From: a virus
Taxonomy: Duplodnaviria; Caudoviricetes
IMG/VR virus record: IMGVR_UViG_3300046733_000629
Strand: one strand, 5' to 3'
DNA length: 64,000 nucleotides
Part shown: piece after piece, positions 16,553 through 46,394 of the stretch
How positions within the stretch are numbered: the stretch's first letter is position 1
Layout: each line of letters begins with the position of its first letter
Position numbers and translations under genes: made by a program
The notes under the pieces: generated by a model
Told to the model about the DNA's origin: nothing
Database searches by the model: none
What the model saw: only the letters and a program-made list of their open reading frames with translations

Positions 16553-17977
16553 ATGGCAGATAATAAACTACCAAGCGATACTTTTTGTATCCTACCTTGG
16601 ATTCACCTTTCAACAAGACCAGACGGCAGTATGCGTGTATGTTGTACGGCTAACGCATCAAGTGTTGGAGCAACCAACGACAAAGAACATGGCGGCAGAG
16701 TTGGTATTGTTAGAACAGAAGATGGAAGACCAGCAAACTTAAATAACAGCGATCTAAATAGTTCGTGGAATAATAGCTATATGAGAAGTGTCAGACAAAT
16801 GATGCTTAAAGGCGATAAGCCTGCTAGTTGTTTAAAATGTTATAAAGAAGAAGATGCAGGACACAGATCAAAAAGACAATGGGAAACAGATTACTGGATT
16901 AAAGACGGTATTGATGTAGAACAATTAGTAAAGGAAACTTACGAAGATGGAAGTACTGATAGTAAATTACGGTATATTGATATCCGTATGGGGACGAAAT
17001 GTCAGTTGGGGTGCGTTATGTGTTCTCCACATGATAGTTCCGGCTGGGTAAAAGATTGGAATAAATTATATCCACAAATTACAAACGAGTCATTAAAAGA
17101 AACTATGACTTGGGAAAACAAAGGTAAAGAATTTGGTGCTAGTTATAATTGGCACAAAGACAATCCTGTATTTTGGGAACAATTTTATGCACAGATTCCA
17201 TATATTAGACAATTATATTTTGCTGGTGGTGAATCAACTGTTATTGAAGAACATTACGATATCTTAGATAAAGTTATTGAAATGGGATATGCACATCAAA
17301 TCGAAGTGCGTTATAATAGTAATGGTATTGAAATTCCAGATAGACTATTAGAGCAGTGGAAACATTTTCAAAAAGTAAGATTCCATTATAGTGTAGATAG
17401 CATTGAAGGTATGAATGATTATATTAGATACCCAAGTGAATGGGAACATAATCTAAAACAGTTTGAACTACTAGATACTAGAACAAGTAATAATGTAGAA
17501 ATTACTATTGCTTGTGCAGTTAATGCATTAAACATTCATTATATTCCAGACTTCCTTAAATGGAAACTACAACATGGATTTAAGAAAACAAACATGTGGC
17601 CTTTTGGTGCAGGTGGTATTAACTATCATTTTGTATATTGGCCAGGACACTTAAATGTTAAAGTGCTACCAGATGAATTCCTAGATAAGACTGAAGCTAA
17701 GTACGAAGAATTTATTGAATGGTGGAAAGAAAATTGGGAACTAGGTGTTCCTAGTTGGCACAAAGGCAAAGTATCATACGAGAAATGGCTAGATGCTAGT
17801 TACGGAATTAAACGACTCAGAGGCATGATTAGTTTTGCCCGTAGTGAAGATTGGAGCAGAAGACTTCCTGAATTCAGAGAATACATTAATAAATTAGATG
17901 AATTAAGAGGCACAGACTTCCGTGCTACCTTCCCTGAAATGGCATATCTTCTCGATGAGCCAGATGAAAAGCTATAG
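16553..17977 (+). CDS. Radical SAM protein with N-terminal twitch-type domain
   Basis: FCILPW..MRVCC..CLKC at N-terminus; CQLGCVMC; FAGGE. ATAAATA at 16528-16534 upstream. Confidence 0.92.
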   Translation: MADNKLPSDTFCILPWIHLSTRPDGSMRVCCTANASSVGATNDKEHGGRVGIVRTEDGRPANLNNSDLNSSWNNSYMRSVRQMMLKGDKPASCLKCYKEEDAGHRSKRQWETDYWIKDGIDVEQLVKETYEDGSTDSKLRYIDIRMGTKCQLGCVMCSPHDSSGWVKDWNKLYPQITNESLKETMTWENKGKEFGASYNWHKDNPVFWEQFYAQIPYIRQLYFAGGESTVIEEHYDILDKVIEMGYAHQIEVRYNSNGIEIPDRLLEQWKHFQKVRFHYSVDSIEGMNDYIRYPSEWEHNLKQFELLDTRTSNNVEITIACAVNALNIHYIPDFLKWKLQHGFKKTNMWPFGAGGINYHFVYWPGHLNVKVLPDEFLDKTEAKYEEFIEWWKENWELGVPSWHKGKVSYEKWLDASYGIKRLRGMISFARSEDWSRRLPEFREYINKLDELRGTDFRATFPEMAYLLDEPDEKL

Positions 17978-18176
17978 CAATATAATACCAAACGTATCCT
18001 GGAAAGAAGTAAACTTTTTGTTCTTTTGTGTTAAAGGACATTTAATTCCAACAGAATATACAAACGAAGATATTAGAAGTATGTACGATAGTTACTTTAA
18101 AAGACTATGGGGCAACAACGAAAGAATGATTTATTGCAGAGATGAGTTTGAAGAATTATGGGGTATGAAAAACTAA
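17964..18176 (+). CDS. Small hypothetical protein
   Basis: Part of ORF 17922..18176; fills the gap between two rSAM genes. Confidence 0.55.
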   Translation: MKSYSNIIPNVSWKEVNFLFFCVKGHLIPTEYTNEDIRSMYDSYFKRLWGNNERMIYCRDEFEELWGMKN

Positions 18177-18180
18177 ACAT

Positions 18181-19431
18181 ATGGAACTTAGACCCAAAAC
18201 TGTTAGAGAAAAAATAGAAGAACTTCCAACAAAAAGTTATTGTGCATATGCATGGTCAGGTGCAGCAATAGGACCAACCGGTGATGTATTTCCATGTTGT
18301 AGATGGCAAGGACCTCACACTCAAGGTGACCCTAACGTTCCAAACATTAAAGATGGGTTAGTAGCAGCCAGAGAAGGAAAATATTTTTCTAGAATAAGAG
18401 AGCAAATGATCAATGGAGAATATCCTTCTGGTTGTGCTAAATGCTGGAGAATAGAAAAGAAAAGATTAGAAGAAGAAGATGCAGGAATTCCTAGCCCACA
18501 GGATAGTGTACCTAGAGTACAAATTGGTCACAGAATAAAAGTAACATCAACTAAACCTCAAACTGAAAAGATTAGATACTTAGAAACAGGTGTTAGTAAC
18601 TTGTGTAATATGGCATGTGTAATGTGTGGACCATTAGCAAGTAGTACAATATTTTCAATAAAAAATCCAGGTGTAAAAGTTCCCAAAGGCTTTCACCAAG
18701 ATAATACTAACATTGATGATGACTTATCAGAATTACGTTATTTAAAATTTGTAGGTGGTGAGCCTATGTTAGAAAAGAAACATGATGACTTACTAGAAAT
18801 GGTTATTAACCAAAACGCTGATCCTTCTCAACTAGAAATGGAATACCATACTAATGCAAGTGTATTTCCTAGTGAACGTGTTATAGCATGTTGGAAGAAA
18901 ATAAAACTAGTAAGAATTATTTTTAGTTTAGATGGAGTAGGTGACAAAGTTAAACTTCAAAGGCCAGGAAAATATGTTTGGCAAGATTTAGAAGATACTG
19001 TAGATAAGTATGTAGCTATAACTAATGAAGTCAATATAGAATTTTCATCCAATACAGTATTAACTTCATTGAATATAGGACAAGGAATTGATACAGTAAA
19101 ATGGCTTTATAAAAAAGTAGGTAAATGTACGTTAGGTTGGTTTAATGTTAACCCAGAAGTTATGCCAAAGGTATCATCAAAGTATTTAAATCATAGAAAC
19201 CTAAGTAAAGAAACTAAAGAAAGAATTAAAAAAGAAATAGCTGATTTTAAACAATCAGAACACCCGGCATTAAAGACACCAATTGCTAAAATTTTAGATA
19301 TTATTCTACATCACATAGATGAGCATGGTGACTTAGACGAAGACTTGACCAGAGAATTGATTTTAGAAAAACATACTAATAAAGATAGATGGAAACACTT
19401 TGGTGAAGAATTAAAAAATTTAGATATATAG
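18181..19431 (+). CDS. Radical SAM protein with N-terminal twitch-type domain
   Basis: YCAYAW..VFPCC..CAKC; CNMACVMC; FVGGEP. Confidence 0.92.
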   Translation: MELRPKTVREKIEELPTKSYCAYAWSGAAIGPTGDVFPCCRWQGPHTQGDPNVPNIKDGLVAAREGKYFSRIREQMINGEYPSGCAKCWRIEKKRLEEEDAGIPSPQDSVPRVQIGHRIKVTSTKPQTEKIRYLETGVSNLCNMACVMCGPLASSTIFSIKNPGVKVPKGFHQDNTNIDDDLSELRYLKFVGGEPMLEKKHDDLLEMVINQNADPSQLEMEYHTNASVFPSERVIACWKKIKLVRIIFSLDGVGDKVKLQRPGKYVWQDLEDTVDKYVAITNEVNIEFSSNTVLTSLNIGQGIDTVKWLYKKVGKCTLGWFNVNPEVMPKVSSKYLNHRNLSKETKERIKKEIADFKQSEHPALKTPIAKILDIILHHIDEHGDLDEDLTRELILEKHTNKDRWKHFGEELKNLDI

Positions 19432-19439
19432 GAAAGAAC

Positions 19440-19976
19440 ATGAAATACATTTTAGTTGCTCTCAAAGAAGAGCTACCAGACCATGATTTACCTTCATCAG
19501 AATTCCAAGTATGGTATACTGGTGTTGGAAAAGTAAACGCATCTATATTTGCTACGTTAGCATGTATACAAAAAGACTGTGAAGCTGTTATTAATTACGG
19601 AACAGCAGGTACATTAAAACCTGAACTAGCCGGACAGTTACTACAAATAGGTACAGTTAGACAACGTGATATGGATGCAAGACCACAAGCAGAATTAGGT
19701 GTTACACCTTTTGATAATTCAGGATTTGATGGTGATATAGAACTTAGTAACAGTGCATACATATTAAGCACAGGTGATAACTTTGTAACGTCAGCACCAG
19801 AACTTGAAAGTGATTGTGTTGATATGGAAGCATATGCAATTGCCAAAGTATGTAAACACTTTCAAAAGCCATTTATATGTTATAAATATATTAGTGATTT
19901 AGCTGATGAGAATGCAGCAAAGACTTGGGTCGAAAATCAATCTAAAGGAGCTGATGCTTTTATAGCAATGACATAA
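19440..19976 (+). CDS. mtnN: 5'-methylthioadenosine/S-adenosylhomocysteine nucleosidase (PNP_UDP_1 family)
   Basis: TGVGKVNA, INYGTAG, STGDNFV, VDMEAYAIA, KYISDLAD motifs. Confidence 0.85.
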   Translation: MKYILVALKEELPDHDLPSSEFQVWYTGVGKVNASIFATLACIQKDCEAVINYGTAGTLKPELAGQLLQIGTVRQRDMDARPQAELGVTPFDNSGFDGDIELSNSAYILSTGDNFVTSAPELESDCVDMEAYAIAKVCKHFQKPFICYKYISDLADENAAKTWVENQSKGADAFIAMT

Positions 19977-19977
19977 T

Positions 19978-21231
19978 ATGAGTGGATTCTGTGCATTACC
20001 ATTTGTTCAATATAGTACATACAACGGAGGTCGTTTTAGATTATGTTGTATGGCTAAAGAACCTACTGAACTTGTTAATCAAGAGAAGCTAGGTATTGAT
20101 GGTACATGGAATCACAAATATATAAAAGAAGTAAGACGTAAAATGACTGCTGGTGAGAAACTACCAGAGTGTATTGAATGTCATCATTTAGAGCGTAATG
20201 GAATAATGAGTTCACGCCAATGGGAAAACAAAGTATGGGCAGATGTTATTGATGATATAGTAGCAGATGCATCAGCTAATGATTGGAAAGTTGATCAGCC
20301 ATTACAATTTGATTTTAGACTTGGTAACTTATGCAATTTGCAATGCCAGATGTGCAACAAAGAAGCATCTCATTTAGTGAGTGTGGAACGTGCGGCAATG
20401 GTACAAAGCGGACTCGGAGCGAACCATCCTGATTGGGACGGCAATATTGCAAATAAAAAAGAAGCATTACTTCAACCAGGGATTGAATGGGAAAGTTTTG
20501 AAAGAATGTTACCTTATGCTCGTAAGATAAAACTGATAGGTGGCGAACCAACAGTAGCACAAGATATGTTTAAGTTGTTAGATATTGCAACAGAAAGTGG
20601 ACATGCTGAACATATTGAATTAAGTTTTTACACAAACATAACTAACATGCAAGACAAATGGCTTAATCAACTAGCTAAGTTTGAGAAAGTAATTGTTAAC
20701 TGTTCGTTAGAAGGAATGGGAGATATGAATGATTATTTACGTCCTCCATCTAAATGGGCAAGTGTTTGGAAGAATTTTGATAAATTAGTACAGTTTGCTG
20801 ATACTAAAGCAGGTAAGCGTATTAAGGTACGTGTTACTACAGTAAACCAAATGACCAACGCATTGCATATAACTAAGTTTTGGAAGTATATGCATGATTA
20901 CCAGATGACTAGTAATAGAGGCATTGGCATGAGTACCAATCAGTTAGTAGAGCCGGCATACTATAGCATGGCAAATGCTCCTGAATGGTTAAAGAAAGAA
21001 CAACGTGAACAGATTTTGGAATTTCTCAAAAGCATTGGCAATAGTCCGCATTTTGAGCAATATGAAGAACCTCTTATGGAGGTTGTTAATTTTAGTTTGG
21101 ATACTGAGCATAAGTATGATGCTGACATCATGCAACAGTATGTTCAAATCACAGAAAACTACGACAGATTCAGACAACACGATATTACCAAAGTGTCGCC
21201 CGAATTTGAAAGAATTAAAAGAGACCTCTGA
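19978..21231 (+). CDS. Radical SAM protein with N-terminal twitch-type domain
   Basis: FCALPF..FRLCC..CIEC; CNLQCQMC; LIGGEP. Confidence 0.92.
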   Translation: MSGFCALPFVQYSTYNGGRFRLCCMAKEPTELVNQEKLGIDGTWNHKYIKEVRRKMTAGEKLPECIECHHLERNGIMSSRQWENKVWADVIDDIVADASANDWKVDQPLQFDFRLGNLCNLQCQMCNKEASHLVSVERAAMVQSGLGANHPDWDGNIANKKEALLQPGIEWESFERMLPYARKIKLIGGEPTVAQDMFKLLDIATESGHAEHIELSFYTNITNMQDKWLNQLAKFEKVIVNCSLEGMGDMNDYLRPPSKWASVWKNFDKLVQFADTKAGKRIKVRVTTVNQMTNALHITKFWKYMHDYQMTSNRGIGMSTNQLVEPAYYSMANAPEWLKKEQREQILEFLKSIGNSPHFEQYEEPLMEVVNFSLDTEHKYDADIMQQYVQITENYDRFRQHDITKVSPEFERIKRDL

Positions 21232-21288
21232 TATAACTGAAGCAGAAACTTATCGTCAGTGGGATTGTAAATGGAGTATTGATTTTTA

Positions 21289-22434
21289 ATGAAGTATGGA
21301 TTTAACAGTTGGAATAGTTGGGATAGACTAAAAGAATGCATGGTTGGCAATGTATATCCTACAGATTTCTTTTCAGTATATAAAGATAAAAGAATAGGTG
21401 ATGCATTAGAAAAAGTAAATGAAGATTCTAGACAAGATATTGCCAACCTTATTAATATTTTAAAAAGTGCAAGTGTCAAAGTAATACAAACGCCTAGTAA
21501 GTTTATAGACAAACGAGGCAATACAATTGATGATGTAAATAAAAACATTGAATATAGTAATACAATTCAAAAACCAATGCTTAGTCCTAGAGATGATTTT
21601 ATTGTAATGGGTGATACACTAGTTAATACAAGTGCTAATCATGCATATAACACATGGGGACCGTGGCAAGGTTGTGATGACTATATTAATCTTACTCGTG
21701 ATTTTGATGAAAAGTGGAATGATCCAGAAATGACTAAGTTCAAGGAAACATTAATGACGGATGAGTTTGATGTAGATGCACCTTGTATTATGCGAGCAGG
21801 TAAAGATATACAAGTTGATATAAGCCATCATAACAAAGGAACTATGGAATTTGCTAATACTTGGTTACCTAAACATATGCCTAATTTTAGAGTAAACACA
21901 ATAGAAATGGGTGGACACAGTGATGCAGTTATTTGTTTAGTTAAGCCAGGATTAATTATAAGTCATAGAAAAGTTAATAATTATGATGAACTATATCCTG
22001 GATGGGAAGTAATATATGTAGACAGACCAATGGACGAATATATAGATGCATATTGGGAACAAAAGAATAATATACCTAGTGTAATTAATTACTGGATAGA
22101 TGGTCAAGAAAGTAATAATGTATTACATGAATTTATAGGCAAGTGGATGCAAGTAGGACATGTTTACGAAACACATTTTAATGTTAATTGTTTAAGCATA
22201 GACGAAAGTACACTTGTATGTAATTATTATGATAAAGAACTAGCACAGAAATTAAAAAAACATAATGTTGAATTAGTAGAAGCACCAATGAGACACAGAC
22301 ATTTTTGGGATTGTGGAGTACATTGTGCAACAGTTGATTTGATAAGAGAAGGTGAATGTAAGGATTATTTTCCAACTAGAAAACAAGGACAATTTTTTGG
22401 AAAGCCGTGGGGAAATAATGAGACAAGAAGATAA
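21289..22434 (+). CDS. Amidinotransferase (pentein; GATM/StrB1-like)
   Basis: NSWNSWDRLKE, SPRDD, GHSD, CGVHCAT with the catalytic Cys. Confidence 0.88.
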   Translation: MKYGFNSWNSWDRLKECMVGNVYPTDFFSVYKDKRIGDALEKVNEDSRQDIANLINILKSASVKVIQTPSKFIDKRGNTIDDVNKNIEYSNTIQKPMLSPRDDFIVMGDTLVNTSANHAYNTWGPWQGCDDYINLTRDFDEKWNDPEMTKFKETLMTDEFDVDAPCIMRAGKDIQVDISHHNKGTMEFANTWLPKHMPNFRVNTIEMGGHSDAVICLVKPGLIISHRKVNNYDELYPGWEVIYVDRPMDEYIDAYWEQKNNIPSVINYWIDGQESNNVLHEFIGKWMQVGHVYETHFNVNCLSIDESTLVCNYYDKELAQKLKKHNVELVEAPMRHRHFWDCGVHCATVDLIREGECKDYFPTRKQGQFFGKPWGNNETRR

Positions 22435-25122: not shown

Positions 25123-25130
25123 TAAATAGA

Positions 25131-25961: not shown

Positions 25962-25983
25962 ATGTACTCCATTATATATGTAG

Positions 25984-25997
25984 ATAAATATATTTAT
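25984..25997. promoter_or_regulatory. Palindrome ATAAATATATTTAT (late-promoter-like motif on both strands)
   Basis: Perfect 14-bp inverted repeat in the only divergent junction inside the cluster. Confidence 0.5.
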
Positions 25998-26676: not shown

Positions 26677-27016
26677 ATGCAAAGTAGTAGGACCAAACGC
26701 TAACTCAGAAGCAATGTCAATGAGATTTGACGGCTATGTTGTTCCATGTTGTCATATGAATAGTCAACATGCAATGGATAAGTTATCATTGTTCTTGGGT
26801 AAAGATGTAAAAAATATACACATTACAAGTGGACATAGTATAGATGAAATAAATACTAGCAAAGAATATAAACGTATTGAAGATAGTTGGAACACACCTA
26901 CACCTTTTTCAATTTGTAAAAGTGCATGTGGTAGACCAGGTGAAATAGGTCCAGACATACATCGCACAGGAACACAATTCGTTCAAAAGACTTTAAACAA
27001 GGATACACATGAATAA
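26663..27016 (+). CDS. Stand-alone SPASM/twitch-type Fe-S domain
   Basis: YPRC...GYVVPCCH...ICKSACG. Confidence 0.75.
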   Translation: MIYPRCKVVGPNANSEAMSMRFDGYVVPCCHMNSQHAMDKLSLFLGKDVKNIHITSGHSIDEINTSKEYKRIEDSWNTPTPFSICKSACGRPGEIGPDIHRTGTQFVQKTLNKDTHE

Positions 27017-28076
27017 ATCAGTAAATGCATGGAGCGAGTTTCAACCGCTAAAAAAAGTAGTGCTTGGCGCTCCGTTTCCACCTGAAACATTTGATTGGCA
27101 TAAGGACAAAGAGACTCGTGATGTTATGCGTCAGATCTTTACAGAAACAGCAGAGGACTTACAAGTGCTGGAGGGGATATTAAAGGGCAAAGGTATTGAA
27201 GTAATACGTCCAAAGAATATATTTACAATCACAGGTGAAGAACAGATTCAATTACCATGGATGCATTGTGGTTTTCCAAACCACCCATTAATGCCACGTG
27301 ATACATTAATGCCATATGGTAATAGTATTTTTGAACTGTTTACAGGTAGCGATAATCGCTACTTTGAAAATCTCGCATATTACGATCATTGTAGTAAATG
27401 GTTTCGTGAAGGTGCAGATTGGGTTAGTATGCCAGGAGTACTAGTAGAGAGTGGTAAAAAATACGACCACTTTGTAAAAAACGATCGACTGCTTTATCAT
27501 GCGGCTAATATGATAAAGTGTGGACGCCACGTTTTGTTTAGCCAACCTTACGAGGGAGACAATAAACGAGGCAGAGGAACGGCACTGGGCCGCGAATGGA
27601 TTCAACGTGAAATAAAGTTGCGATATCCAGACACCCAATTTTTGGACATACCAGTAGGAGGACACATCGACGGAAAAATAGCTCTACTAAAACCTGGCGT
27701 ACTGATGACCTGGAATAAAAACTGGGTACCAGAAGAAATGAAAAACTGGACTATTATTGAAGTAGATGATGACTTTGATATGCCCGAAGACTTTCAACAA
27801 ACTCGTAAGCGTAGATTTCATAAAGAATATGTAAGCAAGTGGTTAGAGCATTGGGTAGGTTGTCCAGATGAAAGTGTGTTTGATGTTAATGTATTATCAT
27901 TAGATGAAAGCACAGTTATTTGTACAGGAAAAAACGAACAAGCATTTGCTGAAATGGAAGCACACGGCATTGAACCAATTTACTGGAATTTTAGACATCA
28001 GTATTTTTGGGATGGTGGCATTCACTGTTTAACAAGTGATATAGTTAGAGAAGGAGATTGTGAGAGTTATGTATAA
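27009..28076 (+). CDS. Amidinotransferase (pentein), third paralog
   Basis: NAWSEFQPLKK, MPRDT, GHIDG, GGIHCLT. Confidence 0.9.
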   Translation: MNKSVNAWSEFQPLKKVVLGAPFPPETFDWHKDKETRDVMRQIFTETAEDLQVLEGILKGKGIEVIRPKNIFTITGEEQIQLPWMHCGFPNHPLMPRDTLMPYGNSIFELFTGSDNRYFENLAYYDHCSKWFREGADWVSMPGVLVESGKKYDHFVKNDRLLYHAANMIKCGRHVLFSQPYEGDNKRGRGTALGREWIQREIKLRYPDTQFLDIPVGGHIDGKIALLKPGVLMTWNKNWVPEEMKNWTIIEVDDDFDMPEDFQQTRKRRFHKEYVSKWLEHWVGCPDESVFDVNVLSLDESTVICTGKNEQAFAEMEAHGIEPIYWNFRHQYFWDGGIHCLTSDIVREGDCESYV

Positions 28077-28413
28077 TCATTTAAAAAATTACATTGGAAT
28101 ATATCTATTAGCAATGGTATGTTTTCTAATATATGCATCTGAACCAACAGATGAAATACCAGTTTGGATATGGTATCTTTTCATTCCAGTAGTTTTATGG
28201 AAAACGCCACCGTTTAATATTGGTGATTGGTTTTGGGGTAAAGTAGCAAGTTTTTGGATGTGGATATTGAAACCATTTACAAGATGGCAAAACACTTGGC
28301 CTACATGGGTAAAGTATGTGTTTGGTATTGTACTTATTATATTGTTTGAAGAATATATTTTAAAGCCAGCAGGCTACACAATGTATCCTTGGAGAATAGA
28401 TTTTAATGGCTGA
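28060..28413 (+). CDS. Small membrane protein
   Basis: Several Trp-rich hydrophobic segments. Confidence 0.6.
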   Translation: MRVMYNHLKNYIGIYLLAMVCFLIYASEPTDEIPVWIWYLFIPVVLWKTPPFNIGDWFWGKVASFWMWILKPFTRWQNTWPTWVKYVFGIVLIILFEEYILKPAGYTMYPWRIDFNG

Positions 28414-29467: not shown

Positions 29468-30717
29468 TGTATAAAAATCCTATGTTAGATGATCATAGAT
29501 TCCCTACATGTTTAGCACCATGGAACGCATTAACTATTAAGTGGGGCGGTGCAGTATTGCCTGACATTATTTACAATGGCAAGTTTGGAAACATTACAAG
29601 ACAAACATTACCAGAGATATTAAACAGTGAAGAAGCAGTAGCATTGCGTAAGTCGCATGCAAGTAGAATAGTTCCAGAAGCATGTTTAGCATGTACCAAA
29701 AAAGAACAAAGCGGTAAAAGTCGTAGAATGTATTTTTGGGATAAACTTGATGTCGATGTTAAAAAAGGAAGTATTAAGAACACAGCAAACAGTAAGCCTG
29801 ACATACGTTATTTAGATTTTACAATCAGTAATAAATGTAATTTAGCATGCATACATTGTAATCCTTTTGTAAGTACAGGGTGGACCAAAGATGGAAAGAA
29901 ACTAAACAAAGAAAAGCCAGACTATTGGAAACAAGCACAAATAGGATATCACGGTGTAGAAGATATGACATTCCTTGATAACTTGTTTGCTGATCCAGAC
30001 TATTTTCGTAACCTACAGTGGGTAGCATTAAGAGGCGGAGAGCCATTGTATGATGAGAGTTGTAAAGCAATATTACAGTGGTTTATTGATCAAGGACTAG
30101 CAAAGAATATTATGCTAGACATTAGTACAAATGCTACAGTTTTCGATGATGACTTTCAGGAGATATTTAAACACTTTAAGCATATTGAATTGCTTATCAG
30201 TATTGAAGCAGTAGATGAATTATACAGTGTAGTACGAGGAGGATCGTATACATTTAAAGAATTAGAAGAAAACATAGAAAAGTTTTATACATATCCTAAC
30301 ATTGAAGTTGTGTTTGCAGTAACAGTTATGTTAACAAACGTATTTGGGTTAGACAAAGTATGGGACTGGTTTAAAGAAAAACACATGCATAGAGCAAGTA
30401 TAAGCATGAGTAATGTTGTAGTTAATCCTACATATTTAAATATTGCATACATGCCAGATGTGTTAAAATATATTATGTATGATAAGCTATTGTCTATTCC
30501 AGATCAAAGCATTTGGCCTAAAGGCAGTTATCATGTAGACGAAATACATTACCAAACTGGAATACATGCTATCAGAGATGGATTACAAGTTGAGGTAAAC
30601 GAAAAAGAACAAGAAAAGCAATGGGATTGGTTTGTCAAGTATACAAAAGACTTAGACAGATTACGTGGAACAAACACGTTTGAATTAATAAAGGAGTTAA
30701 AATTATATGAACAGTAA
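29467..30717 (+). CDS. Radical SAM protein with N-terminal twitch-type domain
   Basis: TCLAPW..CLAC (the CC pair is replaced by PD); CNLACIHC; LRGGEP. Confidence 0.9.
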   Translation: MYKNPMLDDHRFPTCLAPWNALTIKWGGAVLPDIIYNGKFGNITRQTLPEILNSEEAVALRKSHASRIVPEACLACTKKEQSGKSRRMYFWDKLDVDVKKGSIKNTANSKPDIRYLDFTISNKCNLACIHCNPFVSTGWTKDGKKLNKEKPDYWKQAQIGYHGVEDMTFLDNLFADPDYFRNLQWVALRGGEPLYDESCKAILQWFIDQGLAKNIMLDISTNATVFDDDFQEIFKHFKHIELLISIEAVDELYSVVRGGSYTFKELEENIEKFYTYPNIEVVFAVTVMLTNVFGLDKVWDWFKEKHMHRASISMSNVVVNPTYLNIAYMPDVLKYIMYDKLLSIPDQSIWPKGSYHVDEIHYQTGIHAIRDGLQVEVNEKEQEKQWDWFVKYTKDLDRLRGTNTFELIKELKLYEQ

Positions 30718-31645
30718 CCCAGATTTTGGTACCAGTGGCAACAGCGTCTGGAATCAACAATATTTTGATTTTTTAAATGAAACATTCTTTCCTAAAATTG
30801 ATATCACTACAATTGCTGATGAATCAAATATTATGCTTGATAGATATCAAGGATGGATAGAAAGTAGTACATTAAATAAATTTAAAGGACTAGACGCATT
30901 TCCAATGCGTTATGCAAGCGTTGGTACTACGCAAGCGTTAGATTGGTGGCATTATTATTGTGCAGTTAACAACATGGATCTAAAAATGTTTAGAGGAGAG
31001 TACCCATATCATAGAGATGCATACTTACAAACTCATTTGGGTTGGGATGATTGTATTGAAGATTGTGGATTAATTGCAGGTGATGCAGTTGTAGTAAGTG
31101 TTCCATTTAGTGCAACAGGCAGACTTCCAATACAATGGGAAGACTTAATGAAAACATGTAACAGACTAAAGATTCCAGTGTTTGTTGATTGTGCATGGTT
31201 TGGAACTTGCTTTGGTATTACTGTTAACTTAGATGAACCATGTATTAAAATGGTTGCATTTAGTACAACAAAAGGACTTAGTTGTGGTAACTGGCGTGCA
31301 GGTATTGTGTTTAGTAAAGTAAACGAAAAAGACTTTAAACGTGCTACTGATGGTAGCTTAGAAACACAAACAGATTGGAATCATGGTAATCATCTTAATA
31401 CTGCTATTGCTAACAGATTAATGGCAGAGTTTTCACCAGATACTATTCCTAAAAAATATATGGCATCGCACATGGCAGTATGTAAACATTATGGATTAAT
31501 TCCTACACAAACTGTACATATTGCAGAAGGTGCTCGTGGAACTGAATGGGACGTATTTCATAGAGATGAAACATACAATAGAATTAATATTTCAAAAGCA
31601 TTGAAGCGACACAAGAACAAGGGAAACTTTTATGACAACATATGA
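30707..31645 (+). CDS. PLP-dependent (fold type I, class I/II aminotransferase-like) enzyme
   Basis: VFVDCAW (DxA) and FSTTKGLSCGNWRAG (S-x-x-K...R-x-G Schiff-base motif). Confidence 0.75.
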   Translation: MNSNPDFGTSGNSVWNQQYFDFLNETFFPKIDITTIADESNIMLDRYQGWIESSTLNKFKGLDAFPMRYASVGTTQALDWWHYYCAVNNMDLKMFRGEYPYHRDAYLQTHLGWDDCIEDCGLIAGDAVVVSVPFSATGRLPIQWEDLMKTCNRLKIPVFVDCAWFGTCFGITVNLDEPCIKMVAFSTTKGLSCGNWRAGIVFSKVNEKDFKRATDGSLETQTDWNHGNHLNTAIANRLMAEFSPDTIPKKYMASHMAVCKHYGLIPTQTVHIAEGARGTEWDVFHRDETYNRINISKALKRHKNKGNFYDNI

Positions 31646-32084
31646 TGATCCTATTAACATAACAACTAAAGGACAATATCCAATTAGAGCCCATATGGTA
31701 TTTAATAACATGGGTCCAGAAAACTGTGAAGATATCCTTTGGCAGAATGTAATAGATTCAACAAGTAATCTTGAAGGAAACGAAATAGGTGTAAGTGTAA
31801 CACAGAGTTATCAATATACAAAGTTAAATGACGATCCAACTATTATGGTTAGATGGCAAGGTATTAAGACTACAAATGGTAATGAATTTAGAATTGGTCT
31901 AGGAAAAGGAATACCAGCAGATAAAAGAACACCACCTATAATGTCTGGCAATATGAAAACCGGAGTGCAAGTCAATAGTACACTATCTATACAATCAGTA
32001 AAACTAGGTTGTGTAAATGGAGAGTTTGCAATTGAAAAAGATGGCAAATGGTATGCTATTCAAATAGGAGAAGCGATTGAATAA
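31632..32084 (+). CDS. Hypothetical protein (beta-rich)
   Basis: 150 aa ORF coupled to both neighbours. Confidence 0.6.
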   Translation: MTTYDDPINITTKGQYPIRAHMVFNNMGPENCEDILWQNVIDSTSNLEGNEIGVSVTQSYQYTKLNDDPTIMVRWQGIKTTNGNEFRIGLGKGIPADKRTPPIMSGNMKTGVQVNSTLSIQSVKLGCVNGEFAIEKDGKWYAIQIGEAIE

Positions 32085-33213
32085 ACTTCCTAGTAATGCT
32101 TGTGTGTATCCATTCAAAGCTGAAATGCTTATGCATGGACAACCTGCGACTCCTTGTTGTAGGTTTCATACTAGATTTTTAAAAGGAAAAGGTTTTAACG
32201 AAATACGTGAAACTATGATGCGTAATGAATGGCACCCAGGTTGTTATAAATGTAAATCAGATGAAGAAGTTAAAGGTAGCAGTATGAGAACTGAGGCTGA
32301 CGAATTCTTTGATGACTTTACAGACACTGTACGTTTAGAGTACTTAGAAATAACAGTGGGTAGACTTTGCAATTTAGCATGTTTAAGTTGTGGAAGTGAA
32401 TTCAGTCATACATGGGACAAAGACGAAATAGCATTGGGAATAAGTAGCGAAGACAAAATTAAAAAATTAAAAGAAGTACAAGAATATGATTTAGATAATT
32501 TAGATTTAAATAATTTAAAGCATGTTAAATTTATTAAAGTAACAGGTGGTGAACCATTTTTACACAAACAGTTTTTAAATCTTATAGTTAGGTTAGCGGA
32601 CAGTGAACTAGCAGGACAAATTAGCTTAGAGATATTTACAAATTGTACATGGTATCCAGCCAAACTTGAACTAGATGCATTAATGAAATTTAAACATATA
32701 CAACTAAGTCCTAGCATAGATGGTGTAGGTAGTACAAATGACTTACTACGTTACCCATCTAAGTGGGAAAAAATAGAAGCTACACTTGACAAGTGGATTG
32801 AACTTAGAGACGCTACAGGACGCTTAAATATAGCTACAGCCACCACTGTAAGCGTTATTAACGCTCCACAGCTACATGAGTTTATACATTGGGCAAGAGT
32901 GCATAAAGGAATAGGAGTTATACTACAGACGGTATATGAGCCACACTATATGAGTGTAGAGCATTGGCCAGATTGGTATAAACAAACATTAGATATGATT
33001 GTTGAACAGCAATTTTCAGGGTTCAACAAAAATGCAGGTAAATTTAAGACTGCATATAAACTTTTAAAGAAGCTATGCAAATCGCATAGTAAAAAAGACA
33101 ATAGTATTATGTATAAGACAGAACTAAAACATATACTGAAACACCGAGGCCAAGACATTAGTATGGCACCAAAATTTAAGAATATATTAGAGTATCATGA
33201 TAAACAAGGATAA
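32077..33213 (+). CDS. Radical SAM protein with N-terminal twitch-type domain
   Basis: ACVYPF..TPCC..CYKC; CNLACLSC; VTGGEP. Confidence 0.92.
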   Translation: MNKLPSNACVYPFKAEMLMHGQPATPCCRFHTRFLKGKGFNEIRETMMRNEWHPGCYKCKSDEEVKGSSMRTEADEFFDDFTDTVRLEYLEITVGRLCNLACLSCGSEFSHTWDKDEIALGISSEDKIKKLKEVQEYDLDNLDLNNLKHVKFIKVTGGEPFLHKQFLNLIVRLADSELAGQISLEIFTNCTWYPAKLELDALMKFKHIQLSPSIDGVGSTNDLLRYPSKWEKIEATLDKWIELRDATGRLNIATATTVSVINAPQLHEFIHWARVHKGIGVILQTVYEPHYMSVEHWPDWYKQTLDMIVEQQFSGFNKNAGKFKTAYKLLKKLCKSHSKKDNSIMYKTELKHILKHRGQDISMAPKFKNILEYHDKQG

Positions 33214-40972: not shown

Positions 40973-40985
40973 GTAAGTGAGATAA

Positions 40986-41549
40986 ATGAAAATAATCGCA
41001 ACCGGTAATCCAGAATTTGGTGTTGCAAAAGCAATTGCTGAACGGTTTCCTGAAACAACCTTTGTCAATAGAACTGACTGGGGATATGATTTATGTCAAG
41101 ATTCATATAAAAAGAAACTAGCAGAAAAGGCTCTTAATTATGACGTCTTTATTAACTGTTCCGCACTATGGCAGTATCATCAAACTATGCTACTAGATGT
41201 AGTCTACAAAAATGCTTTAAAGAACCTTAAACGACTACATATCGTGTCTTTGGGTAGTACAACTGACAGAGCCACCAAAGGTAGCGACTGGCATTATCAA
41301 CAAGAAAAGAAGGCATTGCGTAGTACAAGCAATGCATTGGGCTTAAAAAGCATATGGGCTGGTGGACCAAAAGTAAGTTATGTTACATTTGGAACACTGG
41401 AAAATAATGCACATAAGCATCCAGGAAGAACAGTAATGAAACTAAACGAAGCCGTAGATATGATAGAATATGTAATTAATATGCCTTATCATTTAAACGT
41501 TAACGAACTAAGCATTGACCCAATGCAAACGGATTGGCCAAATGAATAA
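40986..41549 (+). CDS. Short-chain dehydrogenase/reductase-like protein
   Basis: IIATGNPEFGVAKA, DVFINCS, YQQEK (YxxxK), KVSYVTFG. Confidence 0.7.
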   Translation: MKIIATGNPEFGVAKAIAERFPETTFVNRTDWGYDLCQDSYKKKLAEKALNYDVFINCSALWQYHQTMLLDVVYKNALKNLKRLHIVSLGSTTDRATKGSDWHYQQEKKALRSTSNALGLKSIWAGGPKVSYVTFGTLENNAHKHPGRTVMKLNEAVDMIEYVINMPYHLNVNELSIDPMQTDWPNE

Positions 41550-42717
41550 ATTTTGCTACATGCCTTGGCATGCAATCACGTTGAGTGCAAATGGTGATAT
41601 TAAGCCATGCTGTCAATTTAGTAATAAAGGTCGTTTACCTAATACACAACATGAAACTATTATGGAAAACTTTAATAGTGAACGTATGCAAGAACTACGT
41701 AAAGACTTTCTAAAAGGTGTACAACCTAGTGCTTGCAATAGTTGTTGGGAGAGAGAAGATTTAGTAGGACAAAGTAGACGCCTGTGGTTTAATAAAAAGT
41801 TTATGAAGTTTGATGCTGATTTTATAAATGGCAATACACCTGATACATATGATGTACCAAATCCAAAGTTCTATCAAGCAGATATTAACTTATCAAATGT
41901 GTGTAATTTAAAATGCCGTATGTGTGGAAGTTGGGCAAGTAACAGTTGGTTCGAAGAAGAAATAGCGTTAGCTAAAATAGACAAGCGTTATGAAAAGAAT
42001 GAAAGAGCAGTTCCATTACAACAATATGGATTAGAAGACTTACGCAATATGCTACCTCATTTAAAAGATGTAAAGCGTATAGACTTTAAAGGCGGAGAGC
42101 CTATGATGGCTAAACATCATAATCAATTCTTACAATGGTTGATTGATGAAGATATGACTAACATTGAATTATTTTACACAACAAACGGAACAGTACAAAA
42201 TCCTAAAATACTGAACTTGTTAAAACAGTTTAAACGTGTTAGTATATGTTTTAGTATAGAAGGTACTGGAGAACTATATAGATATATTAGAGGTGGCAAA
42301 TACGAACTAGAAGATTTTGAATTCACACTATCAGAATATGATAAGTTACCAAATGTACAAATTATGTTTAATGTAACATTACAAAATTATAATGTATTTA
42401 ACTTACCAGACTTGCATTTTTTCTTGCATGAAATGGAAGATAAATACGAGAGAGTAAGTGCTAACAGTAGTTTCACTACTATCTGTAACAAACCAGCATA
42501 TTTAAGTCCAATGAACTTGCCAGATGATTTACGAGATAAAGCAATTAAAAACTTATCCTTGTTTGAAGATTTTGACAAGTTAGTTGAGAGTATGAAAGCT
42601 AGAACATTTAATCCTGAACTATGGGATACATTTATTAACTTTACAAACGACTTAGATAAAATGCGAGGAGATAGTGTAGTTAAAGCTGTACCTCAACTAA
42701 AGGAATATTTTAAATGA
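41542..42717 (+). CDS. Radical SAM protein with N-terminal twitch-type domain
   Basis: FCYMPW..IKPCC..CNSC; CNLKCRMC; FKGGEP. Confidence 0.92.
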   Translation: MNKFCYMPWHAITLSANGDIKPCCQFSNKGRLPNTQHETIMENFNSERMQELRKDFLKGVQPSACNSCWEREDLVGQSRRLWFNKKFMKFDADFINGNTPDTYDVPNPKFYQADINLSNVCNLKCRMCGSWASNSWFEEEIALAKIDKRYEKNERAVPLQQYGLEDLRNMLPHLKDVKRIDFKGGEPMMAKHHNQFLQWLIDEDMTNIELFYTTNGTVQNPKILNLLKQFKRVSICFSIEGTGELYRYIRGGKYELEDFEFTLSEYDKLPNVQIMFNVTLQNYNVFNLPDLHFFLHEMEDKYERVSANSSFTTICNKPAYLSPMNLPDDLRDKAIKNLSLFEDFDKLVESMKARTFNPELWDTFINFTNDLDKMRGDSVVKAVPQLKEYFK

Positions 42718-43436
42718 GAAAACTTGTAGGTATTGAAGATAATCATGCACCTAAGGATGAGTTACTACGAGTAGAATGGAATTTAGGAAAACGTTGTAAT
42801 TACAATTGTAGTTACTGTGGTAACGAACTACATAATAAAACAAGCGAGCATATGCCTTGGGAAGTTTATACTAATACAATAGATAAAATTGTAGAAGCAG
42901 CAATGGGCAAAAAGATTAAAATTAGTTTTACAGGCGGTGAGCCATTTGTACATCCAAAGTTTATTGATATGTTAAAGTATGCTAAAGAAAATGGTGTATA
43001 TAGATGTAGTGTTACAACAAACGGAAGTCCACCACCTAAGATATATAAGAAAGCATTGCCATATTTACATTATGTTGTAATCAGTTATCATTTTGAATTT
43101 GCATATCATGAGAAAGTTATTAATAACATTACAGGTATGTGGAAAGAGATACAAGAATATAGAGCTAAAGATGATTACAAAGGCATGCATGTTCATATTA
43201 TGGCTTTACCAGGACACTTGCCACAATGGAAAGAAATCATAGACGAATTAAAAGAATGTGGAGTTGAGTATACTATAAGAAAAATTAGACCACGTGTTAA
43301 CATGGATCGTACAGGTTGGAATAAACCATATGCTGACGGTATGTTAGGGCAACATCCTAAACACGAAGAAACAGAAAAGTTTGCAGGACAATATTATAGT
43401 AATGAAGAAGAGGAGTGGTTAAAAGTAAATGCCTGA
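42714..43436 (+). CDS. Radical SAM core domain (N-half of a split rSAM-SPASM)
   Basis: WNLGKRCNYNCSYC; SFTGGEP; paralog of the N-terminal part of 48391..49566. Confidence 0.9.
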   Translation: MRKLVGIEDNHAPKDELLRVEWNLGKRCNYNCSYCGNELHNKTSEHMPWEVYTNTIDKIVEAAMGKKIKISFTGGEPFVHPKFIDMLKYAKENGVYRCSVTTNGSPPPKIYKKALPYLHYVVISYHFEFAYHEKVINNITGMWKEIQEYRAKDDYKGMHVHIMALPGHLPQWKEIIDELKECGVEYTIRKIRPRVNMDRTGWNKPYADGMLGQHPKHEETEKFAGQYYSNEEEEWLKVNA

Positions 43437-44736
43437 TACTAATTATCATAGAGACATATACACCAGAAAACGAAAAGTTAAAGAATGGATGGCTGAACCT
43501 GGAAATAATTTTTGTGCATTGCCGTTTATTCATATGGCAATTGAAGCAGATGGGCAGGTAAGACCTTGTTGTATGGGAGATCCTTTTGACAATATTAATG
43601 TTTCAGGCGGTACAATAGAGAGTGCATATAATCACCCTGAAAGACAAGAATTTGTACAAGCATTTAAAGACAACAAACAACATCCAAAGTGTAATGTATG
43701 TTGGAATGCATCATATAGTATACGTAGTAGATATTCATCAAATGACATGTCTATAAAATTTACTGAATCAGTAATGGAAGGCAATACCCCAGAAGCATCA
43801 TTAAAATGGTTAGAAATTAAACCCGGAAACAGATGTAATTTAAAATGTAGAATATGTGGGATACACAATAGCAGTACATGGACAAAAGATCATCATATTC
43901 TAAAAGAACACAAGAGCGTAAAATTTAAAGATTCATTTGCATTTAAATATACACAAAAATGTAATTGGGTCGATGATCCTAACTTCTGGAATGATATAAA
44001 TCAGTTAGATGAAATACAAGATTTACACTTTATGGGTGGTGAACCTTTTATGGTATTAGAGCATTTTCAGTTACTTGAGAAATTAGTAGCTAGTCGAGAT
44101 TGTAGTGATATCACTATTAGATATAATACAAATGGTACTTATTATCCAACAGCAGAACAATGGAAATTGTATGAGAATTTTAGACAAGTAAAATTTCAAG
44201 TAAGTATTGATGATGTTGGTCCAAGATTTGAGTACGCTCGTAAAGAAGCAAAGTGGGATCTAGTAAAAGAAAATCTAAGAAAGTTTAGAGAAGCAAAACT
44301 ATTATGCGAAGTTAAAGCAAAAAATGATCCCATCAATTATCCAGTAACAAAAGTTAGAGCAAATTTAGACCCAACAGTAAGTATGTTTAATATATTTTAC
44401 TTAGATGTTATTGAAGAAGAATTTAATAACATGGGTTGGCCTTTGGGAAGTCATGCAGATCATTATGTCTATAATGGACCAAATAATATAAGAAACTTGC
44501 CAGATGAATATAAACATATAATAACTGAAAAATATAAAGACACTAAAAGTACTTGGATACCAATGGCAGTAGATTATATGTGGACAGCCAAAAGTGATTA
44601 TGAACAGTGGATGATGTTTGTAAAACAGACTAAAGAAACAGACACAGTAAGAAATGAAAGTTTTAGTGATGTATATCCTGAATTTTATAATCTTATAAAA
44701 AGTGAATATGATAGGTATGAACCAATAGATGAATAA
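43429..44736 (+). CDS. Radical SAM protein with N-terminal twitch-type domain
   Basis: FCALPF..VRPCC..CNVC; CNLKCRIC; FMGGEP. Confidence 0.92.
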   Translation: MPDTNYHRDIYTRKRKVKEWMAEPGNNFCALPFIHMAIEADGQVRPCCMGDPFDNINVSGGTIESAYNHPERQEFVQAFKDNKQHPKCNVCWNASYSIRSRYSSNDMSIKFTESVMEGNTPEASLKWLEIKPGNRCNLKCRICGIHNSSTWTKDHHILKEHKSVKFKDSFAFKYTQKCNWVDDPNFWNDINQLDEIQDLHFMGGEPFMVLEHFQLLEKLVASRDCSDITIRYNTNGTYYPTAEQWKLYENFRQVKFQVSIDDVGPRFEYARKEAKWDLVKENLRKFREAKLLCEVKAKNDPINYPVTKVRANLDPTVSMFNIFYLDVIEEEFNNMGWPLGSHADHYVYNGPNNIRNLPDEYKHIITEKYKDTKSTWIPMAVDYMWTAKSDYEQWMMFVKQTKETDTVRNESFSDVYPEFYNLIKSEYDRYEPIDE

Positions 44737-45094
44737 TTTTAAAAATATAATAACACATTACAGTGATGGTACAAGTGAAGAAGATAATGTAAATAATGTA
44801 ATGGCACGAGATGAAAATGATTTCCGTGGTTGGGAATGTTGGGCTGGTGTACAAAATATTACAATAAGCAATACAGGTGATGTGTATAGAGCAATATGCA
44901 AAGTAGGAGGCAAACTAGGAAACATATATGATGGATTTGAAATGCCACTTGAAACAATTATTTGTAACAAGCCTAGATGTATATGTGCCGCTGATGTACA
45001 ACTATCAAAAGCACAACCAGAGCATGTTACAAAATTAAGAGTAGGAAAAGATTGGATGGACGATGTTTATAGTTCGGGTATAAAAGATGAGTAA
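44729..45094 (+). CDS. Stand-alone SPASM-type domain (C-half of the split rSAM)
   Basis: FRGWECWAG..GDVYRAIC..LGNI..CNKPRCICAAD matches the C-terminus of 48391..49566. Confidence 0.82.
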   Translation: MNNFKNIITHYSDGTSEEDNVNNVMARDENDFRGWECWAGVQNITISNTGDVYRAICKVGGKLGNIYDGFEMPLETIICNKPRCICAADVQLSKAQPEHVTKLRVGKDWMDDVYSSGIKDE

Positions 45095-46394
45095 ACAAAG
45101 CAATTATGAAAAGTTCTACGAGAACGCTATAGGAAAAATTGGCAAACTGCCAGTGGATAAAGAATCATTTTGTCCATTGCCATTTGTACATGTAAGCACT
45201 ATGCCGCATGGAGAAGTTAAACTATGTTGTAGAGCACAACCACCAAAGAATGGAAAAAATCCAAATGTTAAAGATGAAGATTTTAATCTAAAAGATTATT
45301 GGCACAGTGAGTATATGAATGAGATACGAGATTCCTTAATCACAGGTGAGAAACATCATCAGTGTAAAAATTGTTGGAAGATGGAAGATAATAACATTGT
45401 TAGTTTACGTATGAATAGATTAACAGATTTAATGGAAACTCCATCAACCAGAAATGCAGTTGAAAAATATTTAGTAGATAGAGAAGTAGATTTTAAAATT
45501 CCACTGATAGAACTTAAACTAAGCAACGTATGTAATTTTAAATGTCGTATGTGTTGGCCAAAAGACAGTTCAAAGTGGATGCAAGATTGGGATAAAGTAA
45601 AACAATTCTATAATAAAAATGACAGAGAATATGTAGATGAAATTGTAGACAGTAATGATTTACGTAAATCTAGAGTAATGAACTTGTATGAAAAAGATGA
45701 ACATTTTGTTCCACAATTATTAGAAGTAATGGAAACTGTAGAAGAGATTGAATTTGCAGGCGGTGAGCCACTTATGGATCCTATTCATTATCGTGTATTA
45801 GACAGTATTCCACATCCAGAAAACGTTACATTAAAATACAGTACAAACCTAAGTATTATGAAAATGGGTAAACATAGTGTTATTGACTTATGGAAAAAAT
45901 TTAAAAGCATTAAACTAACAATCAGTATTGATGGACACAAAGAGCTTAATGCTAAAATAAGAAGAGGGTCTGATTGGGAACTATTAAAAAGTAACATTAA
46001 CTTAGTTAAGAAAGAATTAACTAATATTGATGTTATCAAAGGAACTACATGTATTAGCGGAATGAATGCAAAAGAACTAGGCGAAACAGCTGAAGCTATT
46101 GTATTCGAATTAGGTATACACTGGCATACAAGCCGTGTACAATGGCCTGATTTCTTACATGCTAACGTATTACGCCCAACGGAGCTTCAAGGTGGAATAG
46201 ACGGCTTAAAACGGGTATTTGATAGCTTAAACCTACCAGAAAGACGTATGGTAGGTAGACGCTTTATGTTTGAAACACATTTAAATGGTGCTATGCATTG
46301 GCTACAATCTTGTATTGACAATAACAAGCACGAAGAAAAATACGAAGCATTTTGTAAGTTTAATCAGACAATTACGGACATTGATGATGACTAA
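45087..46394 (+). CDS. Radical SAM protein with N-terminal twitch-type domain
   Basis: FCPLPF..VKLCC..CKNC; CNFKCRMC; FAGGEP. Confidence 0.92.
   Translation: MSKQSNYEKFYENAIGKIGKLPVDKESFCPLPFVHVSTMPHGEVKLCCRAQPPKNGKNPNVKDEDFNLKDYWHSEYMNEIRDSLITGEKHHQCKNCWKMEDNNIVSLRMNRLTDLMETPSTRNAVEKYLVDREVDFKIPLIELKLSNVCNFKCRMCWPKDSSKWMQDWDKVKQFYNKNDREYVDEIVDSNDLRKSRVMNLYEKDEHFVPQLLEVMETVEEIEFAGGEPLMDPIHYRVLDSIPHPENVTLKYSTNLSIMKMGKHSVIDLWKKFKSIKLTISIDGHKELNAKIRRGSDWELLKSNINLVKKELTNIDVIKGTTCISGMNAKELGETAEAIVFELGIHWHTSRVQWPDFLHANVLRPTELQGGIDGLKRVFDSLNLPERRMVGRRFMFETHLNGAMHWLQSCIDNNKHEEKYEAFCKFNQTITDIDDD

Follow-up and report, generated by a model that had tools for sequence, protein, structure and literature searches.

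Of what use is an expensive, oxygen-sensitive set of radical S-adenosylmethionine (SAM) enzymes to a phage in surface seawater? The question is raised by a 64 000-nucleotide stretch of viral DNA (Duplodnaviria; Caudoviricetes; IMG/VR record IMGVR_UViG_3300046733_000629; the whole stretch is called the window below), in which eleven paralogous radical SAM genes lie between positions 16 553 and 46 394. Radical SAM enzymes carry out chemically hard reactions, and the family of these eleven, NF033640, is catalogued, abundant in ocean metagenomes and uncharacterised. We found that the genes form an ancient mobile set of distinct orthogroups common to phage and Bdellovibrionota; judged from its sequences, this shared set points to a large multi-step radical tailoring pathway. 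The list of similar genes can now be read as a pathway that is well delimited and open to testing, in which some twelve reactions may differ from one another.

An earlier note on this DNA, made from the sequence alone, had pointed to a family of radical SAM enzymes with an N-terminal twitch domain. Scoring against the NCBIfam model NF033640 (N_Twi_rSAM, twitch domain-containing radical SAM protein; curated cut-off 170 bits) bore this out: the eleven copies received 200–413 bits (E-values 7e-59 to 1e-123), and the match was near end to end in every copy, from model positions 1–5 to 360–398 of 398. The copies, all of them intact open reading frames (ORFs) at the starts named in that note, are listed here and designated below by their first positions.

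16553..17977, + strand: copy 1, 474 amino acids (aa), NF033640 score 413 bits; carries KLPSDTFC and SSxWxxDWxK
18181..19431, + strand: copy 2, 416 aa, 208 bits; the most divergent copy
19978..21231, + strand: copy 3, 417 aa, 302 bits
29467..30717, + strand: copy 4, 416 aa, 254 bits; Cys-to-Asp variant at the auxiliary site
32077..33213, + strand: copy 5, 378 aa, TTG start, 219 bits
33197..34456, + strand: copy 6, 419 aa, 319 bits
38011..39063, + strand: copy 7, 350 aa, the shortest copy, 200 bits
39056..40273, + strand: copy 8, 405 aa, 381 bits; the copy chosen for modelling
41542..42717, + strand: copy 9, 391 aa, 317 bits
43429..44736, + strand: copy 10, 435 aa, 266 bits; between the halves of a split radical SAM gene
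45087..46394, + strand: copy 11, 435 aa, 302 bits

The ATG starts of 39056 and 41542 are internal to longer GTG/TTG ORFs; orthologues back both. A six-frame ORF search of the window with a hidden Markov model (HMM) built from the copies returned exactly these eleven as full-length members; four radical SAM genes from other families (25996/26663, 28406, 42714/44729 and 48391) matched more weakly. The motifs described in the note largely stood. The C-x-x-C followed by CxxxCxxC is present in all eleven copies and the CC pair in ten, with 29467 the sole copy without it, as claimed; the segment SSxWxxDWxK was found in the three copies named (16553, 39056 and 45087) and KLPSDTFC in two (16553 and 39056). 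The opening C-x-x-P-[FW], claimed for all, is found in nine of the eleven, as 18181 has CAYAW and 38011 has CLMFK, and the G-x-x-x-x-CC spacing holds in nine copies and is replaced by G-x5-CC in 32077. In all copies the Cys residues follow the order C...C(C)...CxxC...CxxxCxxC, save that 29467 lacks the CC. Judged from the sequences, such sharing of motifs among the copies goes far beyond chance.

The domain order is reversed with respect to known enzymes of this kind. The Pfam Radical_SAM domain matches all eleven copies (ten reach the 29.5-bit gathering score, 16553 has 29.4), and ahead of it, at the N-terminus, the SPASM domain reaches its gathering score in eight copies, with a ninth (16553) 0.2 bits short. 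A profile made of the first ~75–110 residues of each copy was run against all PDB sequences; its top match was the C-terminal twitch domain of BtrN (E-value 2e-6). The claim that the N-terminal Cys residues are ligands of an auxiliary cluster gains credit from this alignment, where C11, C29, C81 and C84 (39056 numbering) are paired with C169, C187, C232 and C235 of BtrN, its four auxiliary-cluster ligands. Among 195 family members Cys is found at these four positions in 99, 95, 100 and 100%, while the extra Cys, the second of the CC pair, is conserved in 92% and aligns with Phe in BtrN. No further conserved Cys was observed in the N-terminal domain, including the C-x5-C-x3-C of the seven-Cys SPASM; only C-x2-C follows the first pair. 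By its Cys pattern the domain is thus of the twitch type, with a single predicted cluster, and not a complete SPASM.

BtrN itself (2-deoxy-scyllo-inosamine dehydrogenase of butirosin biosynthesis; PDB 4M7S/4M7T) has the four aligned Cys at near-identical spacing, but its twitch domain is C-terminal and its core is only distantly related in sequence to those of the phage copies. In the latter the auxiliary domain occupies residues 1 to ~100, before the radical SAM core; given this placement the architecture is permuted, and the proteins are twitch-like enzymes rather than strict members of the BtrN family. Thus characterised, the eleven genes appear to be functional NF033640 members with a BtrN-type twitch domain ahead of the CxxxCxxC core, and one auxiliary [4Fe-4S] cluster is predicted for them, on Cys-x17-Cys...Cys-x2-Cys, N-terminal to the core, in keeping with the truncated SPASM motif C-x9-15-G-x4-C ... 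C-x2-C of twitch enzymes.

In the subfamily of 29467, Asp stands in place of the second ligand Cys. As phage and Bdellovibrionota orthologues have it alike, this is a trait of the subfamily and not a sign of decay; the residue pattern suggests either that Asp acts as a ligand or that an iron site is left open.

Structure prediction placed the copies less sharply. The AlphaFold2 (AF2) model of 39056 has a predicted local distance difference test (pLDDT) score of 80, with an all-helical region after the barrel. A Foldseek search with it gave only distant neighbours (template modelling (TM) scores 0.33–0.38), and in VIA-align BlsE, SkfB, anSME, SuiB, DesII and MoaA were near-tied (Z 10–12); BtrN was absent from the VIA-align matches listed. 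With BlsE (7VOB), DesII, anSME, SkfB, SuiB and MoaA the copies share the partial TIM-barrel core (VIA Z 11–12, root mean square deviation 4–6 Å over ~200–220 residues), but the auxiliary domains of these enzymes are C-terminal, whereas those of the phage copies are N-terminal, and no close relative has a solved structure.

All eleven copies share with NF033640 the same domain order, twitch and then CxxxCxxC core. The family model, which carries no function, was already known; what is new here is the array arrangement and the host range, which we did not find in print: arrays of 5–18 distinct subfamilies in partial genomes of a jumbo-phage lineage and, likewise an addition to NF033640, the Cys-to-Asp subfamily. 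In the literature we found neither a characterised NF033640 member nor a description of NF033640 function or of such arrays in phages or Bdellovibrio.

How did the phage come by so many copies? The earlier note had left the choice between duplication in place and repeated acquisition to a phylogeny. The copies are 23–32% identical to 39056. In a tree of 195 sequences no two window copies were sisters; each joined its phage orthologue and then bacterial sequences. In a 43-sequence IQ-TREE tree nine copies fell into clades with bacterial sequences, with Shimodaira–Hasegawa-like approximate likelihood ratio test (SH-aLRT) values of at least 95, and two, 18181 and 38011, were long branches of uncertain placement. 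Among the former, 19978 grouped with Pseudobdellovibrionaceae sequences (SH-aLRT 97) and 32077, 33197 and 45087 with Bdellovibrionota sequences (99, 99 and 98); 16553 shared a clade with sequences from metagenome-assembled genomes (MAGs) at 63–65% identity, 39056 is 45–50% identical to MAG sequences, and 41542 is 44% identical to a Bdellovibrionia orthologue with which it shares microsynteny. Monophyly of the eleven copies was rejected by the approximately unbiased (AU) test (difference in log-likelihood 891, p 8e-85), and with it we reject expansion by duplication within the phage. By these trees, nine of the eleven copies are distinct old orthogroups also present in Bdellovibrionota.

The copies also bear the mark of functional genes, as judged by the ratio of nonsynonymous to synonymous substitution rates (dN/dS) computed against orthologues in two related phages, where dS is near 1–2. 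The ratio was 0.05–0.16 for seven copies (e.g. 0.055 for 29467, 0.115 for 32077, 0.08 for 33197, 0.137 for 38011 and 0.109 for 45087) and 0.30 for 43429. The eight copies compared are under purifying selection. The suggestion that divergent paralogs work at different positions or on different substrates of one scaffold would be consistent with such selection together with the one-to-one orthology.

It had also been proposed that a phage-borne expansion could explain many environmental sequences of the family. For many of them a viral source is plausible: the ESM Atlas neighbour clusters are 87–100% viral, 2289 metagenomic homologues were found, and partial genomes of related phages carry 5–18 copies each. 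The part of the proposal that finds no support is duplication inside the phage. An exclusively phage origin of the family is not supported either, given a large cellular reservoir with 10–19 copies per genome.

This reservoir came to light in a scan of prokaryotes, one genome per species, with two peptide patterns; since both patterns came from one N-twitch subfamily, the scan is biased toward that subfamily. It gave 80 loci, of which Bdellovibrionota MAGs account for 72; many lie on chromosomal contigs of 0.9–3 Mb. In five genomes 10–19 copies passed the cut-off, frequently arranged in tandem. Of 81 genomes sampled evenly across Bdellovibrionota, 14 had the family (1–16 matches each); it was found in none of 14 control genomes.

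The cluster that resembles the phage block most closely is on a Bdellovibrionia MAG contig (JAUICP010000002.1, ~745–785 kb), next to rpoD/dnaG. It has counterparts of eight window paralogs (30–45% identity) along with two Asp/Asn-hydroxylase genes, a 678-aa partner protein, an amidinotransferase, an enzyme dependent on pyridoxal 5'-phosphate (PLP) and a 187-aa protein. Its order N-twitch, small radical SAM, 118-aa tail, N-twitch is that of 41542, 42714, 44729 and 45087 in the window, minus 43429. Given the shared paralogs, accessories and microsynteny, the phage block and the Bdellovibrionia cluster are versions of one multi-gene module. Unlike the window, this cluster is cellular and has nothing inserted between the small radical SAM gene and its tail. 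The accessory families recur across the 80 bacterial loci; the eleven-copy set travels with an amidinotransferase, a PLP enzyme, an oxygenase and its partner, a small radical SAM gene and its tail, and a nucleosidase. In the window these and the other radical SAM genes of the block are as follows.

19440..19976, + strand: PNP_UDP_1 nucleosidase-like protein, 178 aa (Pfam PF01048, E-value 2.7e-17), between two N-twitch genes
25996-26676 / 26663-27016, + strand: radical SAM plus SPASM split pair (Pfam Radical_SAM, SPASM), weak match to the copy HMM
27009..28076, + strand: amidinotransferase, with paralogs at 21289-22434 and 22352-23641
28406-29467, + strand: radical SAM protein with C-terminal SPASM (Pfam Radical_SAM, SPASM), weak match to the copy HMM
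30707..31645, + strand: fold-type I PLP enzyme, aminotransferase-like (weak Pfam Aminotran_1_2; AF2 pLDDT 88)
35863-37263, + strand: 466-aa protein with no assigned family, partner of the adjacent oxygenase
37260-38033, + strand: oxygenase of the Asp/Asn beta-hydroxylase family (Pfam PF05118, E-value 1.6e-11)
42714-43436, + strand: small radical SAM protein, matching the N-terminal part of the unsplit paralog 48391-49566 (blastp)
44729-45094, + strand: detached Cys-rich C-terminal piece, 121 aa, matching the C-terminal part of 48391-49566

The nucleosidase gene 19440 is kept in related phages (56–79% identity) and is present in the MAG contig L017 described below; from its family it is a candidate 5'-deoxyadenosine/5'-methylthioadenosine nucleosidase, and as such it would free the radical SAM enzymes from inhibition by their product. 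The phmmer matches of the amidinotransferase in PDB were HsvA (5e-25), SxtG (7e-20) and inosamine-phosphate amidinotransferase (1.6e-16). Out of the three amidinotransferases only 27009 was kept in all close relatives examined, with 89–91% identity in relatives and 45% to a bacterial locus. In Foldseek the model of 30707 matched class I/II aminotransferases (E-value 2e-9, TM 0.5–0.62); its D161, S186 and K189 are invariant, and a PLP enzyme is present at 15 of the 80 bacterial loci. The 35863/37260 pair has fused or adjacent forms in bacteria (678- and 740-aa proteins), and an Atlas match to the fused form (score 0.82) serves as a lead only. The most frequent partner of the arrays is the small radical SAM gene with its tail (32–35 of the 80 bacterial loci). 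The unsplit radical SAM gene 48391 had no sequence match in PDB. A weak nitroreductase-like gene is also among the window accessories.

The window comes from an uncultured jumbo phage, as indicated by its clamp loader (52% identity to that of Pseudomonas jumbo phage PA5oct), by its exonuclease, thymidylate synthase, phosphoribosyl pyrophosphate synthetase and head-protease-like genes, and by the lack of any match to a cultured phage at the DNA level (megablast with 24 kb of the window). Orthologues of 39056 were observed in 15 IMG/VR contigs (62–93% identity). In five of these records, fragments judged 28–51% complete, 18, 15, 13, 11 and 5 copies passed the cut-off, some of them a long way from the main block. 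Related phages keep the gene order of the block with two differences: the 42714-44729 slot is variable, being occupied by a 47–53% identical N-twitch gene or by another radical SAM gene, and more distant relatives are without the 41542-45094 segment. Upstream, relatives vary in whether they have 23710, the split gene 25996/26663 and two of the three amidinotransferases. The orthologues of 18181 in related phages are only ~53% identical, and relative G004 has none; those of 19978 are 88–92% identical.

Among cultured phages, detectable homologues were limited to seven records. Vibrio phage K566 (OZ196521.1, 255 kb) has five N-twitch-like genes, at ~161.5–168.3 kb and 177.9–178.9 kb, two of them above the NF033640 cut-off and three scoring 133–155 bits, side by side; they are annotated as radical SAM or hypothetical proteins only. 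Vibrio phage K567 (~255 kb) was matched by tblastn only. The K566 array differs from that of the window in having fewer copies, which are just 21–25% identical to a window copy, and neighbours annotated as hypothetical proteins; it offers a cultured entry point and a possible laboratory model.

Combinations of this kind have been reported in other phages. Campylobacter phages CP220 and CPt10 have 11–12 radical SAM genes, with an exchangeable module of five radical SAM genes and a glycine amidinotransferase, function unknown (Timms et al. 2010, PMC2853527). Like the window block, this is a phage module of radical SAM and amidinotransferase genes; we considered whether it belongs to the same family and rejected the idea, as the CP220 genes score at most 31 bits against NF033640. 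Radical SAM cassettes in a hypervariable region are mentioned in passing in a study of pelagimyophages (PMC7029224), and a trio of radical SAM, aminotransferase and inosamine amidinotransferase genes is described in a cyanophage paper (PMC12801897).

What the enzymes do has to be read from the family, the neighbours and the accessories. We give about an even chance to their being a battery of BtrN-like, hydrogen-abstracting enzymes that tailor a carbohydrate or another small-molecule scaffold. Hydrogen abstraction from a small scaffold is favoured because the twitch domain is of the BtrN type, because the amidinotransferases resemble enzymes acting on small amines (HsvA, SxtG, StrB1) and because no RiPP recognition element (RRE, a PqqD-like domain) is detectable. 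Each paralog would use the 5'-deoxyadenosyl radical to remove a single defined hydrogen from one common scaffold, be it a carbohydrate, a cyclitol or another small molecule; the auxiliary cluster would accept the electron, completing a BtrN-like oxidation of alcohol to ketone, or, alternatively, the extra conserved Cys would give a hydrogen back, resulting in epimerisation. The ketones would be aminated by the PLP aminotransferase and then amidinated by the amidinotransferases, an oxidise, aminate, amidinate sequence, with the nucleosidase clearing inhibitory 5'-deoxyadenosine. In an infected cell the phage would employ the module to build or alter a product that is glycan-like or guanidinylated. 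In the butirosin pathway an aminotransferase acts after BtrN, and amidinotransferases are found in related aminocyclitol pathways.

The neighbourhood of many bacterial arrays has a glycan character. Among 129 non-radical-SAM neighbours drawn at random from 57 loci, glycosyltransferase (GT) family 2 was by far the commonest Pfam family (14 of 129), and none of the 25 neighbour families listed was an RRE or peptide-export family. Individual bacterial loci contain AsnB, UDP-glucose dehydrogenase, GT1/GT2/GT28, a methyltransferase and a PMT-type transferase. Bdellovibrionota arrays other than the Bdellovibrionia cluster differ from the phage block in being flanked by glycosyltransferases, AsnB and UDP-glucose dehydrogenase. 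No PqqD/RRE domain was found in the copies by Pfam or NCBIfam (a remote or trans-acting RRE could escape), and in this they differ from SuiB and CrpC, which carry an RRE.

Several observations weigh against tailoring of a small scaffold. The substrate and chemistry of NF033640 enzymes rest on inference. There is no recognisable glycosyltransferase in the window block, nor within ~40 kb of the closest bacterial counterpart; the glycan context therefore comes from other N-twitch arrays. The PLP enzyme 30707 is of the amino-acid (class I/II) type, not of the sugar (DegT) type. The comparison of the model ties sugar enzymes (BlsE, DesII) with peptide enzymes (SkfB, anSME, SuiB) among its apparent structural neighbours. 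PF05118 enzymes classically hydroxylate proteins, and peptides or proteins are the substrates of most SPASM/twitch enzymes characterised so far.

A further extension, which we put forward as doubtful, is that the eleven N-twitch enzymes, the amidinotransferases, the PLP enzyme, the hydroxylases and the other radical SAM genes make up one complete, horizontally mobile pathway, which marine jumbo phages and predatory Bdellovibrionota would exchange as a block and which would make a heavily radical-tailored, guanidinylated aminocyclitol-like or glycan product during infection. If true, a virus would run a pathway on the scale of secondary metabolism, with new radical chemistry for each orthogroup.

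The lack of a glycosyltransferase in the block, the amino-acid type of the PLP enzyme, the PF05118 oxygenase and the SPASM/twitch precedent make modification of a protein or ribosomal peptide a real rival, even if on balance we hold it rather unlikely. The enzymes would then introduce cross-links, epimerisations or hydroxylations, one residue or site per paralog, and the Asp/Asn hydroxylase, of a protein-hydroxylase family, would act on the same protein. A SPASM enzyme that cross-links a whole Cys-rich protein is on record in a 2026 paper (PMC13692751). A possible protein target was present inside the block: the 470-aa protein 23710-25122, acidic (56 D+E versus 19 K+R) and rich in Thr, Ser, Asn and Gly, has three N-terminal repeats of ~22 aa (G-[VL]-[RK]-[IL]-x-D-W) and Calx-beta-like segments. 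We rejected it as the common substrate, as close relatives keep the array without it. Nor was a conserved short precursor ORF found in the intergenic gaps (a distant substrate gene could escape this search), or a peptide-export or leader-protease family among the 25 commonest neighbour families. The undetected RRE/PqqD, the all-helical region after the barrel in the model, the single auxiliary cluster predicted in place of a full SPASM and amidinotransferase relatives that use small amines speak against peptides as well; the tie of SkfB, anSME and SuiB with the sugar enzymes in the structural comparison leaves room for them.

Quite improbable, in our assessment, is a module making a free guanidino natural product derived from an amino acid, such as a toxin, a signal or a substance like an antibiotic, without a carbohydrate taking part. 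This would agree with the three amidinotransferases, the oxygenases, the class I/II-type PLP enzyme, whose structural matches include GntC of enduracididine biosynthesis, and the glycosyltransferase-free phage block and closest bacterial cluster. However, many NF033640 arrays are embedded among glycosyltransferases, the twitch domain is closest to that of a cyclitol/sugar enzyme, and no non-ribosomal peptide synthetase, ATP-grasp enzyme or exporter was recognised in the block.

Phage thymidine hypermodification pathways employ radical SAM and PLP enzymes, and this precedent, along with the many radical SAM genes and the amidinotransferase of the Campylobacter phages (PMC2853527), would suit an array that hypermodifies phage DNA or nucleotides, e.g. 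by tailoring a sugar or side chain attached to a base, as a defence against host restriction. We consider this very improbable: the same orthogroups and accessories in Bdellovibrionota chromosomes adjoin housekeeping and glycan genes, not DNA-modification genes, the block has no DNA-binding or base-exchange enzyme, and the CP220 radical SAM genes (at most 31 bits) fall outside NF033640. That the copies merely duplicate one another or are decaying, with no distinct role for each, as the long branches of 18181 and 38011 and the variable slot of 43429 might hint, is scarcely credible and already contradicted by the selection and orthology data, i.e. by ORFs all intact with every catalytic Cys, dN/dS of 0.05–0.30 and one-to-one orthologues across phages and bacteria.

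A few features of the window and of related contigs are worth recording. The ORFs 25996 and 26663 overlap by 14 nucleotides and together resemble the intact gene 28406-29467; the pair, missing from several relatives, is either a two-piece gene or a frameshifted gene. Two paralogs (24% identical) at 46285-47433 and 47430-48401 start with IFG[ND]SF[GA], which resembles the GDSL/SGNH hydrolase motif, by sequence reading only. No match turned up in Pfam, NCBIfam, PHROGs, PDB (phmmer) or Atlas for 23710, 34586, 46285, 47430, 14123, 15143, 15818 or the minus-strand ORF 25131-26123.

Outside IMG/VR the closest relatives of several window genes are on NZGL01000008.1 (L017/L099, 108 kb) and three more contigs (L016, L033, L043), binned as Gammaproteobacteria, Crocinitomicaceae, Neisseriaceae and Rickettsiales MAGs. 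They match 48391 at 74% and 16553 at 63–65% identity and carry the nucleosidase, TauD and 2-oxoglutarate oxygenases; these contigs may really be phage sequences wrongly assigned to MAGs. A Candidatus Parcubacteria contig (L103, 1.27 Mb) has ten radical SAM genes in a run, seven of them full-length N-twitch-like by the copy HMM, flanked by GT1, GT28 and a 533-aa radical SAM–GT2 fusion protein; by its predicted domains the fusion would physically tie the N-twitch class to a glycosyltransferase.

Upstream of the block the window encodes a trypsin-like protease with a PDZ domain (6544-7836), two 390-aa AAA ATPase-like proteins (10911-12083 and 12449-13621; the scan covered the first) and two proteins with alginate-lyase domains (8110-9399 and 9399-10550); an Ulvan_lyase_N protein adjoins one of the Bdellovibrionales arrays (L096).

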